Sequence record: MW388002.1
DNA length: 64,000 nucleotides
Direction: 5' to 3' (one strand)
Source of the DNA: Acinetobacter phage Mokit
The notes under the pieces are model-generated. The model saw only the letters and a list, made by a program, of their open reading frames with translations. It had not been told where the DNA came from and searched no databases. The translations under genes and the position numbers were made by a program. Below are positions 14,191-50,274 of this stretch, one piece after another; positions within the stretch are counted from its first letter, which is position 1; each line of letters opens with the position of its first letter.

Positions 14191-14277
14191 TCTATGAGAT
14201 TAAAAAATGATCATATAAATAGATTAATTTTGCATAATCCACTTGCTTTATGAAATTTGTATGTTATAATGGTTCTA

Positions 14278-14407
14278 CCGGTTCACCGCTCTAAATTTAT
14301 CTATTTGGTCGGAGAAGTATAGCTGCTGCGCAGCCGGCGCTTCGCGCCGAAATTAGATGTGTTTGATGTATCTTGAGAGAAAAATAAAGGAGCCATTTGG
14401 CTCCTTT
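14278..14407 (+). ncRNA. candidate small structured RNA (GC-rich repeat element copy 1) transcribed on the plus strand from a MotA-box-like promoter to a bidirectional terminator hairpin
   Basis: TGCTTTA (14244-14250) + 14 nt + TATAAT (14265-14270); GC-rich hairpins; hairpin aaaggagcc-attt-ggctccttt (14386-14407) followed by TTTTATTAT; no ORF. Confidence 0.3.
14386..14407. terminator. bidirectional terminator hairpin (after macro-domain gene on minus; after GC-element RNA on plus)
   Basis: AAAGGAGCC-AUUU-GGCUCCUUU with U-rich tracts on both strands. Confidence 0.5.
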
Positions 14408-19146: not shown

Positions 19147-19190
19147 ATTTGATAGAACCATTATATCATAACAGTTCTATCATGTAAATA
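19147..19190 (-). promoter_or_regulatory. PeSL-type early promoter (stem gatagaac/gttctatc)
   Basis: tttgatagaaccattatatcataacagttctatcatgtaaatag. Confidence 0.5.
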
Positions 19191-25340: not shown

Positions 25341-25401
25341 TTCATTTTCCTCAAAATTGCTAAGTGTACAAGACTTTCAAATGCAATAAATGGTAGAAGC
25401 C

Positions 25402-25719
25402 TTATAAGACTTCTACCATTAATACTCGTTTAATATCACTACGTTGCGTTTCGATGATTAGTGGCCCAGATAAATTACCAAAGGCTTTAGCAGCAGCATC
25501 GATATTATTGATCGATTCGACTACTGAAATATCACAAAACTCTATTCCCCAGAGAATTGCGCGATTAACTTCACCGTATAATGCAGTAGATTCAGATACA
25601 AATGTATTATCAAAACAAAGAACTTCAACAATATCTGCAGAACGCCATGGCAAAACTTTATCAAGAATAGATGGAGCTTTGATTGTGTATTGACGTTGTG
25701 TGATTTTAAGTTTTGCCAT
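25402..25719 (-). CDS. hypothetical protein (105 aa)
   Basis: ORF behind PeSL promoter ~25741-25782. Confidence 0.45.
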   Translation of the reverse strand: MAKLKITQRQYTIKAPSILDKVLPWRSADIVEVLCFDNTFVSESTALYGEVNRAILWGIEFCDISVVESINNIDAAAKAFGNLSGPLIIETQRSDIKRVLMVEVL

Positions 25720-33949: not shown

Positions 33950-34005
33950 TTCATTTCTCCATAATAGGTAGAACCATTATAACATAGTTCTACCATAAAG
34001 TAAAA

Positions 34006-45814: not shown

Positions 45815-47044
45815 TTAAAAATCGAACATATCCATCAACGATGAACGTTTTTCTGCTTGCATACCTGCAGATTCACACATACCTTCAAGAGGCTTTTTGT
45901 ATGTTTTACCAAATAAGTCCATGACATCCATATGCTTTAGAACATCTGCACGAATTTCTTTAGGCAATTCATTACCTGATGGCCATGCAATACACTTGTC
46001 ACCAAATGGATTTCCAGGTTTAAGAGGCAAGATCATTACCTTTTCGCCTTCTGAAATATCTGGCAAGTTATCGTATTTCTTAATTGCACGTCGGTATGTA
46101 AGAACACCACGAACATGACTTGGACATTTAAGACCCGGGAATCCATTCACATCATATTTTGCAATATTATTTGCAGAACGAACACCAGCAATTACTTTAT
46201 AATCAAGATTTCTGAATTCGTTTTCAAATTTCTTGAAATACTCTTGTAATGGTTTTTCACCTTCTTGGAGCATAATACGAATACTTTCTAACAATGCATC
46301 TTTGACCGCTTTAGGCGTTGATGATTGTTGAGTTTCCATGCCCATGATTTTTAAGTATGGCTCTTTGAAACGTGTACCTTCCATGTCATAGACATTAAGT
46401 GCATATCGTTTCTTGGCACGCCAGAATCCGCCGATGCCGTTAGAACCAAGTGGTGGGCATGCAATAGCTTCACGATCCATAAACATCAATTGTTCATAGT
46501 TGTTGAGATATTCACACATCTCTTTAAACCCATCATTAATAACTGGTTCGATTTTCTTCGAAGCTACTGCATCTAAAAAGTCAACAAGCTTTTCAGTCGA
46601 TGAGAATTTATCGATGCCAACTTTTTCGATTAATGGGCTTAGTTCGATATACAATGAGTCAGTATCGCCATAAATAACATAAGGGTGATCTGTAGTTCCA
46701 CATAGTTCGTTTAAGTATGCATTAATCTTTCGTTCAGTCCATTGAAGAACCATTTGCCCAAAGATTGTAATAGCTTCAGCATTTCTAAGATCGTAAAATC
46801 TAAAATAGATGTTACCGAGTGCGCCATATAAACTGTTAATTAATAGCTTTCGGTTAATTTGATTTGTATCACATAAAGTGATGTAATTTTCACATTGTGT
46901 TTCAAGTGCATTGAGTTCTTCTTGTGAAAGAGATTTGAGATATTCAATTTCACTTTCGGTGAAGTCTCGACTAAAATCAAGATTCATATAATCTCCAAAG
47001 ATAGGGTTTATTGACTCAAATGGGATATGATAACATTTTATCAT
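45815..47044 (-). CDS. 43: DNA polymerase gp43, C-terminal part (43B: palm motifs B/C, thumb)
   Basis: KLLINSLYGALGN (motif B), YGDTDSLYI (motif C), C-terminus ...MDMFDF align with T4 gp43 residues ~480-898; an alternative ATG at 46987 has a stronger RBS (TGGAGATTAT). Confidence 0.85.
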   Translation of the reverse strand: MIKCYHIPFESINPIFGDYMNLDFSRDFTESEIEYLKSLSQEELNALETQCENYITLCDTNQINRKLLINSLYGALGNIYFRFYDLRNAEAITIFGQMVLQWTERKINAYLNELCGTTDHPYVIYGDTDSLYIELSPLIEKVGIDKFSSTEKLVDFLDAVASKKIEPVINDGFKEMCEYLNNYEQLMFMDREAIACPPLGSNGIGGFWRAKKRYALNVYDMEGTRFKEPYLKIMGMETQQSSTPKAVKDALLESIRIMLQEGEKPLQEYFKKFENEFRNLDYKVIAGVRSANNIAKYDVNGFPGLKCPSHVRGVLTYRRAIKKYDNLPDISEGEKVMILPLKPGNPFGDKCIAWPSGNELPKEIRADVLKHMDVMDLFGKTYKKPLEGMCESAGMQAEKRSSLMDMFDF

Positions 47045-47086: not shown

Positions 47087-47284
47087 TTAGAACATTGCGT
47101 TGACAAGCTCAGAACCTGCAGCTAAAGGATTCTTGAACATCAATGCACCAGTAACGAACCCAACAATGAACAACAATGGGATGCATATACCTACACCTAC
47201 AACAACCCGATACCATAATGCGGCAGTTTCAGAAAAATTTTCTGCATTCTCATTAGCAATACGAATTTGACTAAAAATATTCAT
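47087..47284 (-). CDS. small membrane protein in the 43A/43B intervening segment
   Basis: 65 aa hydrophobic ORF. Confidence 0.35.
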   Translation of the reverse strand: MNIFSQIRIANENAENFSETAALWYRVVVGVGICIPLLFIVGFVTGALMFKNPLAAGSELVNAMF

Positions 47285-47598
47285 AGGCCTATCTCCCTAA
47301 AACATTGAAATAATAAACGATTTATTTCCAATTCTTTGCGAACAGATTCATTCATTAACTGTATGACTGTATTAATATCTGATTGGCTGGAGCAGCGTGC
47401 ATTGAGCACAGTTTCTGCATTTTTACGACACATGTCAAATGTATTAAAATATCCTGAATAGCGAGGCAATGTGATGGCTTCAAGGACATTAGGCATCCAT
47501 GAAAGGTGGAACTTTTCATCAATTTCGCCTATAGTAAATAGTGTTGTTTGACAACCTTGAATTTCATCAAACTCTTCAATGGATTTATATACTCTCAT
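47281..47598 (-). CDS. hypothetical protein in the intervening segment
   Basis: 105 aa ORF. Confidence 0.4.
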   Translation of the reverse strand: MRVYKSIEEFDEIQGCQTTLFTIGEIDEKFHLSWMPNVLEAITLPRYSGYFNTFDMCRKNAETVLNARCSSQSDINTVIQLMNESVRKELEINRLLFQCFREIGL

Positions 47599-47909
47599 TT
47601 ATTTAACACCAGTCTAAATTCAGGAAATCTAGCTTCACACTCACGAGAAGCCATTTCAAAAATATTCATAATATCATATATAGTTGAAGGAGTATTTGGC
47701 AAGCCAATAATACTATTCAATCCATTAGTAACAAAATCATTTATAAATGAAATTATATCTTCACCATCTTTAAATTTCAATGCTTTATGAATAAATTCAG
47801 CGGATAGTTCAGCATTACAAGTACCATTATAATGAATTGCACTTAATGGCCACACATTAATAAATGTTTCTCCTTCAGGAGTGATTATTACATCTCTTTC
47901 AATATTCAT
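47595..47909 (-). CDS. hypothetical protein whose 5' leader is GC-element copy 2
   Basis: 104 aa ORF; ATG 47909 lies ~20 nt downstream of the conserved element. Confidence 0.45.
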   Translation of the reverse strand: MNIERDVIITPEGETFINVWPLSAIHYNGTCNAELSAEFIHKALKFKDGEDIISFINDFVTNGLNSIIGLPNTPSTIYDIMNIFEMASRECEARFPEFRLVLNK

Positions 47910-48041
47910 ATCATACTCGACAATATTCAGATTTCGGCGCGAAGCGCCGGCTGCGCAGCAGCTATTCTAGTCCAACGGAACGGCTAAATTTAGAGCGGTG
48001 AACCGGTAGAACCATTATAACACAAAAAATTCGTAAAGCAT
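47910..48041 (-). promoter_or_regulatory. MotA-box-like promoter plus structured GC-rich 5' leader (repeat element copy 2)
   Basis: minus strand: aTGCTTTAcgaattttttgtgtTATAATggttctacc then blocks A/B of the element (47931-48013), 20-nt divergent core 47965-47984. Confidence 0.4.
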
Positions 48042-48078
48042 GTGTGTGCTTTACGAATGTAGATTAATTAATAGACAC

Positions 48079-48303
48079 TTAATTTTTATCGTATAGTTCC
48101 TTTATACACATTGATTTATATTCTAAAACTTCGGTGGCAGTCATAAACGCCATATCCTTTTCACTCTGCGTGTTCCGAGATTTAATTTGAACCAATGTAT
48201 TATGATCTATATTTACTCTAGGTACACAATCTCTGCGAACACCTGGTGTTATGATTTCACAAGGAAATTTTTCTACTATTTCTTTAATCATTTCATATGT
48301 CAT
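48079..48303 (-). CDS. small hypothetical protein in the intervening segment
   Basis: 74 aa ORF. Confidence 0.4.
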   Translation of the reverse strand: MTYEMIKEIVEKFPCEIITPGVRRDCVPRVNIDHNTLVQIKSRNTQSEKDMAFMTATEVLEYKSMCIKELYDKN

Positions 48304-48719: not shown

Positions 48720-48775
48720 TAGTTGATAGGACTATTATAACAATAGTCCTATCAAAAGTAAACATTTATTTGATT
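48720..48775 (-). promoter_or_regulatory. PeSL-type early promoter (stem gataggac/gtcctatc) upstream of the 43A/43B-intervening ORFs
   Basis: gttgataggactattataacaatagtcctatcaaaagtaaacattt. Confidence 0.5.
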
Positions 48776-50274
48776 AATTTTTTAATCAATTCTGCATTAC
48801 GTTTTGCAGCCATCATTTTGTTCTTCCATTCTTTACGTTGAAAGAACACTTTAGTAATTTCTTGTGGAATAATGCCTTGTTTAGTTTTCAAATACATCAT
48901 ACCACTAGGTGAACATGAGAATTCTTCTGATGGACTAGGCGCAATTTTGTTAATAAAATCAGATAACTTTGGAGGCGCAAATTGTCCGGCAATAGTTTCT
49001 GGGCTGATATTAACTTGACGAATAATAGATGGATATAACGATGTTACATCAAATGATACAACATATTTGTATGCGCCAGGTTTAGGTTCTTTAACATATG
49101 CTCCTGAATACGATTGGCGAATATTTGGTTTACTTTCGGGTAAAACTAAATGATCAGCTTTTAAAGAGTTGAACAAAATTGCATCCCAGGTTTTTACTGG
49201 GCTCATTACTGTTGCAATGTTCATTCGTGCATAATAACCCATTGAAATTGATAGATTAATAAATCCACGTTTTGCATCAATTGCTTGAACACAGTACACG
49301 TCAATAATGTTATATGAAATGTAACGTTGATGATTTGATCCACGTAGTTTATCGATTGGGCCGTCATATTCTAATTTGTTGATCCCGGCTTCATACTCTG
49401 CAATATAATCAAGCTTATATGATGGCTGAGACGTGAAAGCAAACTTTTTATACAAATCTAGATAATCGAGAATCATTACTCCAGAAATGTTGAAAATTTC
49501 TTTATCACCGTACATGTTTGTAATAACTTTTGATGTAATCTTACCAAATGGACTTAAACGGGACATGCCTGAAACGCCTAAAACGTTTTTGATTCGATTG
49601 ACAATGTATGGAATATCAAAACCTTCTACGTTCCATCCAGTGAAAATAACAGGTGTGTGTTTTTCCCAGAACTCAACGTACGCCAACAGCATTTCACGTT
49701 CAGATTCATACGATTGATACACCACTTTATCCAAAATATGTTGTGGCACTTCATCACCACCTTCTTCAATTGATTTTGCTGCAAGTTCTTTAGACCATTT
49801 AGTAACACGTCCTCGAGCAGAATTTAGCAAATCAAATACAAAATACTTGTCTTCAATTGAGTCATAATGTGTAATAGCATCAATTTCATACTTTGCAAAA
49901 GTTGGATCTGGGAATTCACCTGCAGTTACCTCAATGTCACAGTTAGCAACACGAATAGCATCGCGACTGTAAGTAATTTCCTTTTTGCCATAAATATCTG
50001 AAATGTATGCAAGTCTAAAGTCATCCATGCCAAGGATTTCTACAATACCACGAGTTTTTTGCATCCAGTCTTTTGCTTCACGAATAGATCCAAATCGTTT
50101 TGGCATACATGGCTTACCATAGATGTCTTTATATTTTGTGTTTGTGCCATCTTTAGCATGAATAAAAAGAGTAGGTTCATATGGAATTTCACGAATTTTT
50201 TCAATGCCATCTTCAACATAACGTTCTTGAATGCGATCACCTGACTGTTCAACAACTAAATAAAAATTAGACAT
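48766..50274 (-). CDS. 43: DNA polymerase gp43, N-terminal part (43A: 3'-5' exonuclease domain and motif A)
   Basis: ...RVANCDIEVTAGEFPDP, AITHYDSIEDKYFVFDLLNS, DVTSLYPSIIRQVNISPETI align with T4 gp43 residues 1-~480; ends ...ELIKKLIK where T4 continues. Confidence 0.85.
   Translation of the reverse strand: MSNFYLVVEQSGDRIQERYVEDGIEKIREIPYEPTLFIHAKDGTNTKYKDIYGKPCMPKRFGSIREAKDWMQKTRGIVEILGMDDFRLAYISDIYGKKEITYSRDAIRVANCDIEVTAGEFPDPTFAKYEIDAITHYDSIEDKYFVFDLLNSARGRVTKWSKELAAKSIEEGGDEVPQHILDKVVYQSYESEREMLLAYVEFWEKHTPVIFTGWNVEGFDIPYIVNRIKNVLGVSGMSRLSPFGKITSKVITNMYGDKEIFNISGVMILDYLDLYKKFAFTSQPSYKLDYIAEYEAGINKLEYDGPIDKLRGSNHQRYISYNIIDVYCVQAIDAKRGFINLSISMGYYARMNIATVMSPVKTWDAILFNSLKADHLVLPESKPNIRQSYSGAYVKEPKPGAYKYVVSFDVTSLYPSIIRQVNISPETIAGQFAPPKLSDFINKIAPSPSEEFSCSPSGMMYLKTKQGIIPQEITKVFFQRKEWKNKMMAAKRNAELIKKLIK

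Follow-up and report, generated by a model that had tools for sequence, protein, structure and literature searches.

A five-site cassette of terminator, promoter and leader with a candidate structured RNA module in T4-like phages of Acinetobacter

Results

The split polymerase locus and its cassette

We analysed a stretch of 64,000 nucleotides (nt) from Acinetobacter phage Mokit (MW388002.1), hereafter the window, in which the DNA-polymerase gene gp43 is split. The two halves, gp43A (48766-50274) and gp43B (45815-47044), are separated by five small open reading frames (ORFs) and by the element studied here, a cassette consisting of a terminator-like hairpin, a promoter and a leader rich in G and C (GC). 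The leader runs, without a terminator, into the ORF at 47595-47909, which is followed on the same strand by ORFs at 47281-47598 and 47087-47284 and then by gp43B; that is, four same-strand ORFs lie past the leader with small gaps between them, and no terminator is seen. We report that this cassette occupies the same five sites, called s1 to s5, in related phages (the polymerase copy being s2), and that its copies change as a set. The features are collected in Table 1.

A preliminary description, made from the window alone, had presented the element as one of a pair, the reverse complement of a copy at 14.3 kb, with two perfect arms (A and B) around a divergent core. The inverted relationship is confirmed: the region 47931-48022 is an inverted near-copy of 14262-14354. 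Both arms are real and in fact longer than described, but at their extended edges they are not perfect. The 34-mer at 47930-47963 is repeated on the opposite strand at 14321-14354, its first base being the only mismatch; the 32-mer at 47982-48013 recurs at 14271-14302, and its 2 mismatches fall within the first three bases. Shuffled sequences are expected to give 0 matches in either case. In a pairwise alignment of the two window copies, identity extends over 47931-47966 and 47985-48022, including the -10 region, and the ~20 nt between them (47965-47984) are divergent, as had been described. The homology of s1 and s2 stops exactly after hairpin 3.

Several other parts of that description also stand. 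The GC content is 0.53-0.55 in the element, and likewise in the first ~75 nt past the putative start site, versus 0.2-0.35 in the surroundings; AT-rich sequence begins only after a pair of abutting hairpins. A MotA-box-like promoter, with its TATAAT at 48019-48014, lies on the minus strand. The element forms the 5' leader of the ORF at 47595-47909, whose ATG is 98 nt past the putative start site, an A at 48007 placed by spacing only. However, the element is not one of a pair, since each genome holds five full copies of the cassette rather than two.

With respect to known RNA families, the whole window contains no intron, riboswitch, ribozyme or small RNA (sRNA) matching Rfam at gathering thresholds; matches within 47800-48150 are at chance level (E >= 1.7), and a search for tRNA and tmRNA returned none.

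Table 1. Features of the cassettes in the window and in related phages
Feature	Position	Strand	Remarks
s2, terminator-like hairpin ATTCGTAAAGCA-CACACA-TGCTTTACGAAT	48029..48058	-	12-pair stem, then TTTTTGTGTT; T-rich tail 48019-48028
s2, MotA-box-like TGCTTTA	48040-48034	-	in descending arm of the hairpin; TGCTTTA-N14-TATAAT
s2, extended -10 TGtTATAAT	48014..48022	-	with GGTTCT, the promoter core common to generic early promoters
s2, arm A GGTTCTACCGGTTCACCGCTCTAAATTTA	47985..48013	-	discriminator, putative start site, pyrimidine-rich 5' leader segment
s2, core, type II allele	47965..47984	-	possible hairpin UAGCC-GUUCCGUU-GG(A)CUA at 47968-47986
s2, hairpin 2 GCUGC-UGC-GCAGC	47950..47962	-	
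s2, hairpin 3 CGGCGC-UUC-GCGCCG	47935..47949	-	abuts hairpin 2; 3' limit of homology with copy 1
s2, AU-rich spacer	47910..47934	-	weak Shine-Dalgarno GAG 47918-47916; ATG at 47909
s2, first downstream ORF	47595..47909	-	104 aa; no family match
s1 (copy 1), whole cassette	14244..14407	+	TGCTTTA 14244-14250, -10 14265-14270, leader 14271-14354, type I core
s1, hairpin 2	14322-14334	+	
s1, hairpin 3	14335-14349	+	
s1, bidirectional terminator	14386-14407	+	
Ordinary early promoter	33967..33994	-	shares only TATAATGGTTCTACC; inverted half GGTAGAAC upstream
Site s1	window 14265		upstream of srd-like gene; antisense to both neighbours; ends at bidirectional terminator
Site s2			split DNA-polymerase (gp43) insert; same strand as genes
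Site s3			between gp3 and gp2; antisense; ends in hairpins and U-rich tail
Site s4			divergent rnh/gp34 intergenic region; toward rnh
Site s5			between gp25 and uvsY.-2, the T4 oriF position; same strand as genes
AB leader, s1 equivalent			upstream of Srd; antisense; ends at GGAGCC terminator
AB leader, s2 equivalent			split gp43 insert; orientation matches
AB leader, s3 equivalent			between gp3 and gp2; antisense
AB leader, s4 equivalent			between rnh and gp34; orientation matches
AB leader, s5 equivalent			between gp25 and uvsY.-2; orientation matches
Twin hairpins, Melin s1/s2			GCUGC-UGC-GCAGC and CGGCGC-UUC-GCGCCG
Twin hairpins, Melin s3			AUUGUGC-UGC-GCACAAU and GAUGC-GCA-GCAUC
Twin hairpins, Apostate s3			AGUGC-GCA-GCACU and GAUGC-GCA-GCAUC (read by eye)
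Twin hairpins, AB s1/s2			GCAG-CUUG-CUGC and UCGAG-CUUG-CUCGA
Twin hairpins, AB s3			GCAG-CUUG-CUGC and UCGAUGC-UGA-GCAUCGA

Five sites are occupied throughout related phages

Over the region concerned, the window is 100% identical to Acinetobacter phage Melin (MW388003.1; Straboviridae, Twarogvirinae, Hadassahvirus). Searching Melin with the -10 and arm A gave two more perfect copies, and BLAST gave a fifth carrying a 1-nt deletion. Each of the 50 related records (Hadassahvirus and Lazarusvirus) contains the cassette at ~5 places, and site-specific queries find each of the five sites occupied throughout the related genomes. Three of the sites adjoin core genes (gp3/gp2, rnh/gp34 and gp25); s1 and s3 have no ORF downstream and run against their neighbours.

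The 5' end of the leader is strictly conserved in sequence. Its first 22 nt are identical between genera whose flanking sequences are 76-81% identical, and the same 22 nt of arm A are identical at the five sites in Melin, KARL-1, Stupor, phi1 and Apostate, the exception being the 1-nt deletion at Melin s5. The remainder of the leader is less evenly distributed: arm B is missing from copies 3 and 5, and s4 and s5 carry only the 5' part of the module, with the twin hairpins absent in most phages.

In the other collections scanned the leader is not found. A scan of IMG/VR returned only phage AbTZA1 and one chance match; a metagenome scan gave no match to the leader; a 21-mer from the hairpins gave seven matches, attributed to chance, in contigs of 67-74% GC; and 185,579 bacterial and archaeal genomes gave no match. 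Since none of the bacterial genomes scanned contains a copy, an origin in the host is not supported.

In one divergent lineage, represented by AB1I1 and AB2I, the promoter core is shared and the leader is a different one, GGTTCTACCCCCTACCCTTCCAATATTATATTTACTGCCGGAAAAGAATAGG (GGTTCTACCCCCTACCCTTCCAATATT...GCCGGAAAAG). The complete genome of this lineage (OQ627712) has it at 6 places, among them the equivalents of all five sites (Table 1). Here too the second hairpin marks the exact end of the homology of s1 and s2. A related leader is present at s5 of Acj61, a phage of another genus, which has at least 1 further copy. The set-wise replacement of the leader in the AB lineage suggests that the five copies have a common partner, are strongly homogenised, or both. 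The cassette had been suggested to be a product of PeSL-type (promoter-early stem-loop) recombination or a mobile regulatory RNA module. Segments have indeed been exchanged between copies, as described below; but as far as sequence comparison can tell the cassette is not recently mobile, given that its five sites and their orientations are kept in ~50 genomes and in the divergent lineage.

Some observations concern individual sites or the records themselves. The offset between the window and the Melin record is 40 at ~14 kb and 383 at ~47.5 kb, that is, ~343 bp differ between these points, and the stretches sampled are 100% identical. Directly after gp25, these Acinetobacter phages have uvsY.-2 (Melin ~119.5 kb, compared with T4 114.3-115.9 kb). 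A tblastn search with T4 UvsY found no homologue in the Melin sequence searched; the uvsY-type promoter is nevertheless kept. That the s5 leader is a relic of uvsY is no more than a speculation: MAFFT did not recover its likeness to the 5' end of T4 uvsY (ATGAGATTAGAAGAT versus ATGATATTAGATGGT in Acj61). The s5 leader also contains a late-promoter-like TATAAATA in all lineages sampled. At s4, a second MotA-box promoter, TGCTTCA-N12-TACAAT, lies downstream of the cassette and directly upstream of rnh (Melin record ~151.5 kb), and so rnh may be expressed without the s4 cassette. Outside the window, the Melin record annotates a 'tRNA-Pyl' in the phage tRNA cluster (77062-77136), probably a suppressor-type tRNA.

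A putative middle-mode promoter distinct from the generic early promoters

All five cassettes have an extended -10 with TGCTTTA upstream, so placed that TGCTTTA takes the position of the -35; in s2 the distance is 14 nt, and copy 1 has the same layout on the plus strand (14244-14270). A scan for sigma-70 promoters calls neither the s2 nor the s1 cassette promoter. The arrangement caTGCTTTA-N14-TATAAT, with a box near -30, a sigma-70 -10 and no -35 element, is that of a MotA-box promoter, for which T4 has the box (a/t)(a/t)(a/t)TGCTT(t/c)A about 12-13 nt upstream of the -10. The T4 promoter P_uvsY has the same box at N13 by identical counting, making the cassette spacing 1 nt longer. Since homologues of motA and asiA are annotated in Melin, and since the T4 uvsY promoter carries the same box, we read the cassette promoters as middle-mode, with a predicted dependence on MotA.

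In MW388003.1 the hairpin at 48029..48058 carries a terminator annotation, and by its score it qualifies as an intrinsic one. Upstream hairpins (GTAAAGCA..TGCTTTAC) are present at most other copies examined and weak or absent at a few, for example Melin s3.

Arm A had been described as joined to one half of a PeSL promoter. It is joined to a promoter core, but this core is generic: the window contains 18 TATAATGGTTCTAYC-like (TATAATGGTTCTACC-like) strings versus 2.1 expected, almost all on the gene strand, and the supposed PeSL half is therefore the common core of the phage's early promoters. Those promoters have the form TTTACA-N17-TATAAT in the window. The cassettes share only the downstream half of their core, the upstream half being replaced by the hairpin with TGCTTTA. 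The ordinary early promoter at 33967..33994 marks where the generic core ends and the element-specific leader begins. Moreover, the leader is missing from other MotA-box promoters of the genome, and thus it is a feature separate from the promoter.

The early promoters show a pattern of their own. Many have an 8-nt inverted repeat around the -10, whose halves co-vary between promoters (GATAGAAC/GTTCTATC, GATAAGAC/GTCTTATC, GATAGGAC/GTCCTATC, GGTAGAAC/GTTCTACC); the minus-strand -10s concerned are at 19165, 25758, 48739, 33981, 17695, 16815 and 25406. As the repeat flanks the -10, the -10 would occupy a hairpin loop. Changes that compensate one another in this way suggest that selection acts on pairing or on a dimeric binding site. 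At 25392-25417 there are promoter-like sites on both strands, GGTAGAAG-tct-TATAAG-GCTTCTACC, with the same reading on either strand.

Twin hairpins and the rest of the leader

At s1, s2 and s3 alike, the last part of the leader is a pair of hairpins that abut each other directly, whose sequences differ by site and by lineage while the architecture is kept (Table 1). Such twin pairs occur at 7 loci in ~168 kb, s1-s3 being among them and having the longest stems; in 17 of 20 shuffles of the 64-kb window there is no twin pair at all. The loop of hairpin 3 varies (UUC, UGU or ACA) over unchanged stems, and the G(CUUG)C found in the AB lineage is a classic stable RNA tetraloop. The core, too, may form a hairpin in its type II allele: its outer pairs are UAG/CUA in Melin versus CUG/CAG in the Lazarus group, where it reads CUGCC-GUUC-GG(UA)CAG, and in AbTZA1 s2 a single sense-strand C-to-U change gives a U.G pair within it. 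We consider structure at the RNA level likely for the twin hairpins; for the remainder of the leader it is unproven.

A further helix was considered that would close the module, pairing UCUAA(A/U)U of arm A with UUAGAUG (UCCAAUAU/AUAUUGGA being a possible counterpart in AB1I1). Its duplex energies range from -6 to -11 kcal/mol and the partners differ between copies; because the energies are weak and inconsistent, we do not claim this helix. Downstream of most copies there are, in addition, GAUG motifs in U-rich context (UUAGAUG, UUGGAUG, UCAGAUG, UUUGAUG), occurring 1-4 times at a distance of ~9-10 nt, for example in 14354-14375 of the window; they recur across lineages, including Acj61. Genome-wide, TTAGATG has a frequency of only 0.17 per kb per strand. 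TTAGATG/TTGAT clusters were also tried as iterons and rejected, as a cluster scan of Melin did not pick out the cassette regions.

Two core alleles and exchange between copies

The core had been interpreted as a variable segment held between constant arms, in the manner of a guide-type or riboregulatory RNA. We read the core alleles from Melin, AbTZA1, KARL-1, Stupor, phi1_092060 and Apostate. There are two alleles and one hybrid, fixed by site. The type I core, TCTATTTGGTCGGAGAAG, is found at s1, s3, s4 and s5 of Melin and at s3-s5 of the Lazarus group; the type II core is found as GCCGTTCCGTTGGACTAGAATAG at Melin s2 and as CTGCCGTTCGGTACAGAATAG at both s1 and s2 of the Lazarus group; and phi1 s1 is a hybrid of the two. 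In other words, the allele follows site and phage group. Aligned with one another, the two alleles appear to be diverged homologues with indels.

Phages also differ in how far the shared sequence extends. Melin s4 has gained a segment, GCTGCTGCGCAG, that is absent from KARL-1 s4. In hairpin 3 the loop reads TTC in Melin, TGT in both KARL-1 and Stupor, and ACA in phi1; s1 and s2 of any one genome have the same loop. The ACA loop, which is the TGT loop in reverse complement, lies at the centre of the 15-nt palindrome CGGCGC-NNN-GCGCCG. The concerted TGT/ACA difference at s1 and s2 (Stupor versus phi1_092060) thus points to a flip of the palindrome followed by gene conversion. More generally, the mosaic alleles, concerted loops and shared tracts argue for gene conversion between dispersed copies rather than for a programmable segment, and the mosaics and exchanged segments make it reasonable to regard the element as a regulatory RNA module spread or maintained by recombination.

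These results bear directly on the guide-RNA interpretation, according to which conserved scaffold arms surround a programmable 20-nt core. When only the two window copies are compared, two conserved arms around 20 divergent nt are just what one sees. However, five sites in phages sampled from 50 matching genomes yield only the two homologous alleles and their hybrid, and arm B is missing in copies 3 and 5. The rest of the ~168-kb phage genome contains no complement of either core or of the arms, with <=4 mismatches allowed. Nor is there a nuclease or effector gene beside any copy: the ORFs beside s2 have no Pfam match and belong to PHROG families of unknown function, those of the gp43 insert as a whole to no informative family, and the other copies flank srd, gp2/gp3, rnh and gp25. 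Given a two-allele core, no targets in the phage and no informative neighbouring ORF, we reject the guide-RNA interpretation with near certainty.

A predicted role of s2 in the polymerase operon

MW388003.1 annotates the polymerase as an 'intron interrupted' join, whereas related records describe a split polymerase. Since the insert contains no intron-like RNA and the related records have a split polymerase, the join is not supported. The hairpin at 48058-48029 would end transcription arriving from the gp43A side, including the two ORFs after gp43A, and the MotA-box-type middle-mode promoter that overlaps the hairpin would use its extended -10 to restart transcription at ~48007. The new transcript would open with the ~90-nt module, namely the pyrimidine-rich 5' segment, the core hairpin and the two abutting GC hairpins, and would then read ORF104, ORF105, ORF65 and gp43B. 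The s2 cassette would, on this account, stop transcription from the gp43A side and restart it for the distal half of the polymerase. The annotation of an 'intron-interrupted DNA polymerase' is thereby corrected: the gp43B half has its own predicted restart promoter.

The two window copies differ in what they would produce. Copy 1 has its own predicted promoter, a non-coding body and an intrinsic terminator, which are the features of a stand-alone sRNA gene, and s3 plausibly has them as well; copy 1 has no ORF downstream and is antisense to both adjacent genes. The s2 leader, which runs on into an ORF, is not a stand-alone sRNA gene.

Discussion

A proposed shared RNA module

The reading we favour, and to which we give about an even chance, is that the cassette combines a PeSL-like terminator and a middle promoter with a shared structured RNA module that is homogenised by gene conversion and has a role at the RNA level. 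According to this reading, s1 and s3 would give stand-alone RNAs of ~125-135 nt, transcribed against the local gene direction; s2 would be the same module fused to an operon; and s4 and s5 would carry its 5' part only, in the leaders of rnh and uvsY.-2. Gene conversion would keep the copies alike within a genome and would also have made the two core alleles and their hybrid. The module itself would act on the RNA level as a shared structured domain, in which the conserved 5' segment may be the part that is commonly recognised, and the twin hairpins may provide nuclease resistance, a platform for protein binding, or both. In this manner five transcripts, including those of replication and recombination genes, could answer to one factor, with the orphan copies supplying free small RNA. 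The fixed five sites, the concerted evolution and the set-wise replacement all point to one common partner, whether a protein or a process.

A number of results weigh against this reading. Folding of the 90-nt element is unremarkable for its composition (z = -1.3, and -0.2 to -0.7 with flanks), and folding energies overall are only weakly better than those of shuffled sequences (z = -0.7 to -2.8). The GC stems are invariant within a lineage, and between lineages the twin stems are out of register in MAFFT alignments, differing in stem and loop lengths, which precludes a formal count of pairs. As for covariation, RNAalifold applied to type I leaders finds no compensatory pair and a consensus of -1.3 kcal/mol. 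The apical part of the type I hairpin predicted from Melin is broken in the Lazarus group (read by eye), and the TGT/ACA loop flip is an event of a DNA-palindrome type. Selection need not underlie the concerted evolution, which T4-type recombination could produce as a by-product. Finally, the literature searched contained no transcriptome for these phages, and the start site, the dependence on MotA and the factor acting in trans are all inferred.

Alternative explanations

The five cassettes might instead be replication origins, at which the transcript from a MotA-type promoter serves as an R-loop primer and the leader with its hairpins as a processing or recognition signal. The match of position is best at s5, which lies at the gp25/uvsY-side junction with the ATGCT(T/G)-type box and the -10 of T4 P_uvsY kept; the T4 record marks the equivalent position as oriF, with the uvsY transcript as primer RNA. 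Similarly, s4 lies in the rnh/gp34 gap, 2.1 kb from the T4 oriG inside gene 34, which is also transcribed against gene 34; s1 and s3 are orphan promoters, and the T4 oriG and oriE primers are likewise non-coding and antisense; type I leaders contain a purine-rich tract, GGTCGGAGAAGATAGAG, and the region downstream of T4 oriF is purine-rich too; and five is also the number of active T4 origins (PMC3016281). On the other hand, s5 alone shares true synteny with a T4 origin. The equivalent of s1 lies ~5 kb from oriA and that of s3 ~3 kb from oriE, both facing the opposite direction, T4 has no origin in gene 43, where s2 lies, and, because promoters sit at the starts of transcription units, some overlap with T4 origins is to be expected. 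Furthermore, the first ~20 nt of the RNA are pyrimidine-rich, and pyrimidine-rich RNA is unfavourable for RNA:DNA hybrids. The T4 origins share no sequence motif, their R-loops are sequence-independent, and they need an AT-rich unwinding element (PMC3016281); the first 90 nt of the cassette transcript are locally the most GC-rich, not AT-rich within ~50 bp as such an element would be. We regard an origin function as unlikely, though it is the main rival of the reading that we favour. A role confined to PeSL-type recombination and regulation, with the transcribed part a functionless hitch-hiking repeat, seems to us rather improbable. The terminator-plus-promoter architecture fits the description of PeSLs (PMC2839356, PMC4122927), and the mosaic copies, the tract-like sharing of segments and the palindrome flip concerted at s1 and s2 are what such recombination would leave behind. 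But a highly recombinogenic genome is put at risk by dispersed repeats of ~100 bp or more, and yet these have been kept; the sites, orientations and twin-hairpin architecture persist in the AB lineage, where the sequence itself was replaced; the first 22 nt of the leader have stayed identical between genera while the flanks diverged; and the orphan cassettes s1 and s3 would be purposeless as promoters.

Two further possibilities assign the leader a local function. The twin hairpins resemble a cis antitermination signal of the HK022 put type, being two stem-loops 0-1 nt apart, 45-85 nt past the start and directly after the promoter, and s2 must carry transcription ~2 kb through gp43B, which ends at 45815. 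Read-through to gp43B is nonetheless a very doubtful explanation of the hairpins as such: s1 has the same ones with a strong terminator 37 nt on and nothing to read into, the operon-heading s4 and s5 lack them in most phages, and the stems are short (4-7 bp) and perfect, unlike those of put. Alternatively, the conserved DNA from +1 to +45 could be an operator for a co-evolving phage DNA-binding protein, acting as a repressor or roadblock. This would account for a first 22 nt conserved strictly in sequence rather than in structure and for lineage-specific replacement at all five sites at once, and the co-varying inverted repeats at early-promoter -10s hint at recognition of this kind by a protein or through a hairpin. 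Arm A, however, has no dyad symmetry, the twin hairpins and orphan transcripts are left unexplained, and no candidate protein was identified, so that we hold out little hope for an operator either.

Relation to known systems

We found no description of the element in the literature searched. The closest described system is the PeSL cassette of T4-type phages (Arbiol et al. 2010, PMC2839356; Comeau et al. 2014, PMC4122927). Both are small repeated composites in intergenic regions of T4-like genomes, with a stem-loop terminator upstream of or overlapping a strong promoter, and both show signs of recombination between copies. At s2 the PeSL stem-loop is present as the 12-pair stem with its T tail (48058-48019, minus strand), but the sigma-70 early promoter of a PeSL, with a TTGACA-like -35 and AT-rich sequence upstream, is not: in place of a sigma-70 -35 the cassette has a MotA-type box. 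PeSLs, which flank ORFans and mediate indels and mini-circles, are found by the dozen in hyperplastic regions; the cassette has five copies at fixed sites, including core-gene junctions; its repeat reaches 50-130 nt into the transcript as a structured leader; and two of its copies face the gene flow without an ORF. What is new relative to PeSLs is therefore the promoter class, the copy number and placement, the orphan antisense copies and the long conserved structured leader.

The cassette recalls other systems in part. Like T4 oriF (ori-uvsY) and oriG (ori-34), it combines a MotA-type promoter with a transcript that may be more important than any encoded protein, and it would give non-coding antisense transcripts; s5 occupies the oriF position, its promoter being conserved, and s4 is near oriG. 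Unlike the T4 origins, the cassettes share sequence, and the DNA downstream is GC-rich and hairpin-forming rather than AT-rich. The likeness to HK022 putL/putR consists in two adjacent stem-loops in the nascent RNA just past the promoter; the cassette stems are much shorter, and the same hairpins occur in the terminated s1. In paralogous families of sRNAs and leaders, as here, a module may be found both stand-alone (s1, s3) and as an mRNA leader (s2), with a conserved, seed-like 5' segment. The cassette differs from them in having five phage-encoded copies that evolve in concert, and no target, chaperone or processing site was identified for it.

Significance

The consequences depend upon which reading is correct. 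If the cassettes were origins, the leader would be a recognition element for a phage initiation or processing factor and the first shared origin motif in any T4-like phage, and the two gene-less cassettes would be explained. If they were recombination cassettes only, the PeSL concept would extend to middle promoters and to core-gene junctions. Copies at five sites that change together were not expected, and they lend themselves to experiment. They bear on three subjects in T4-like phages, which among large virulent phages are the ones studied best: shared origin signals, co-regulation of middle-mode transcripts after initiation, and the use of small RNAs. The module offers a mutable handle on the presumed common partner of the five sites, in phages that are used clinically against Acinetobacter baumannii (the phage family of the Patterson case).

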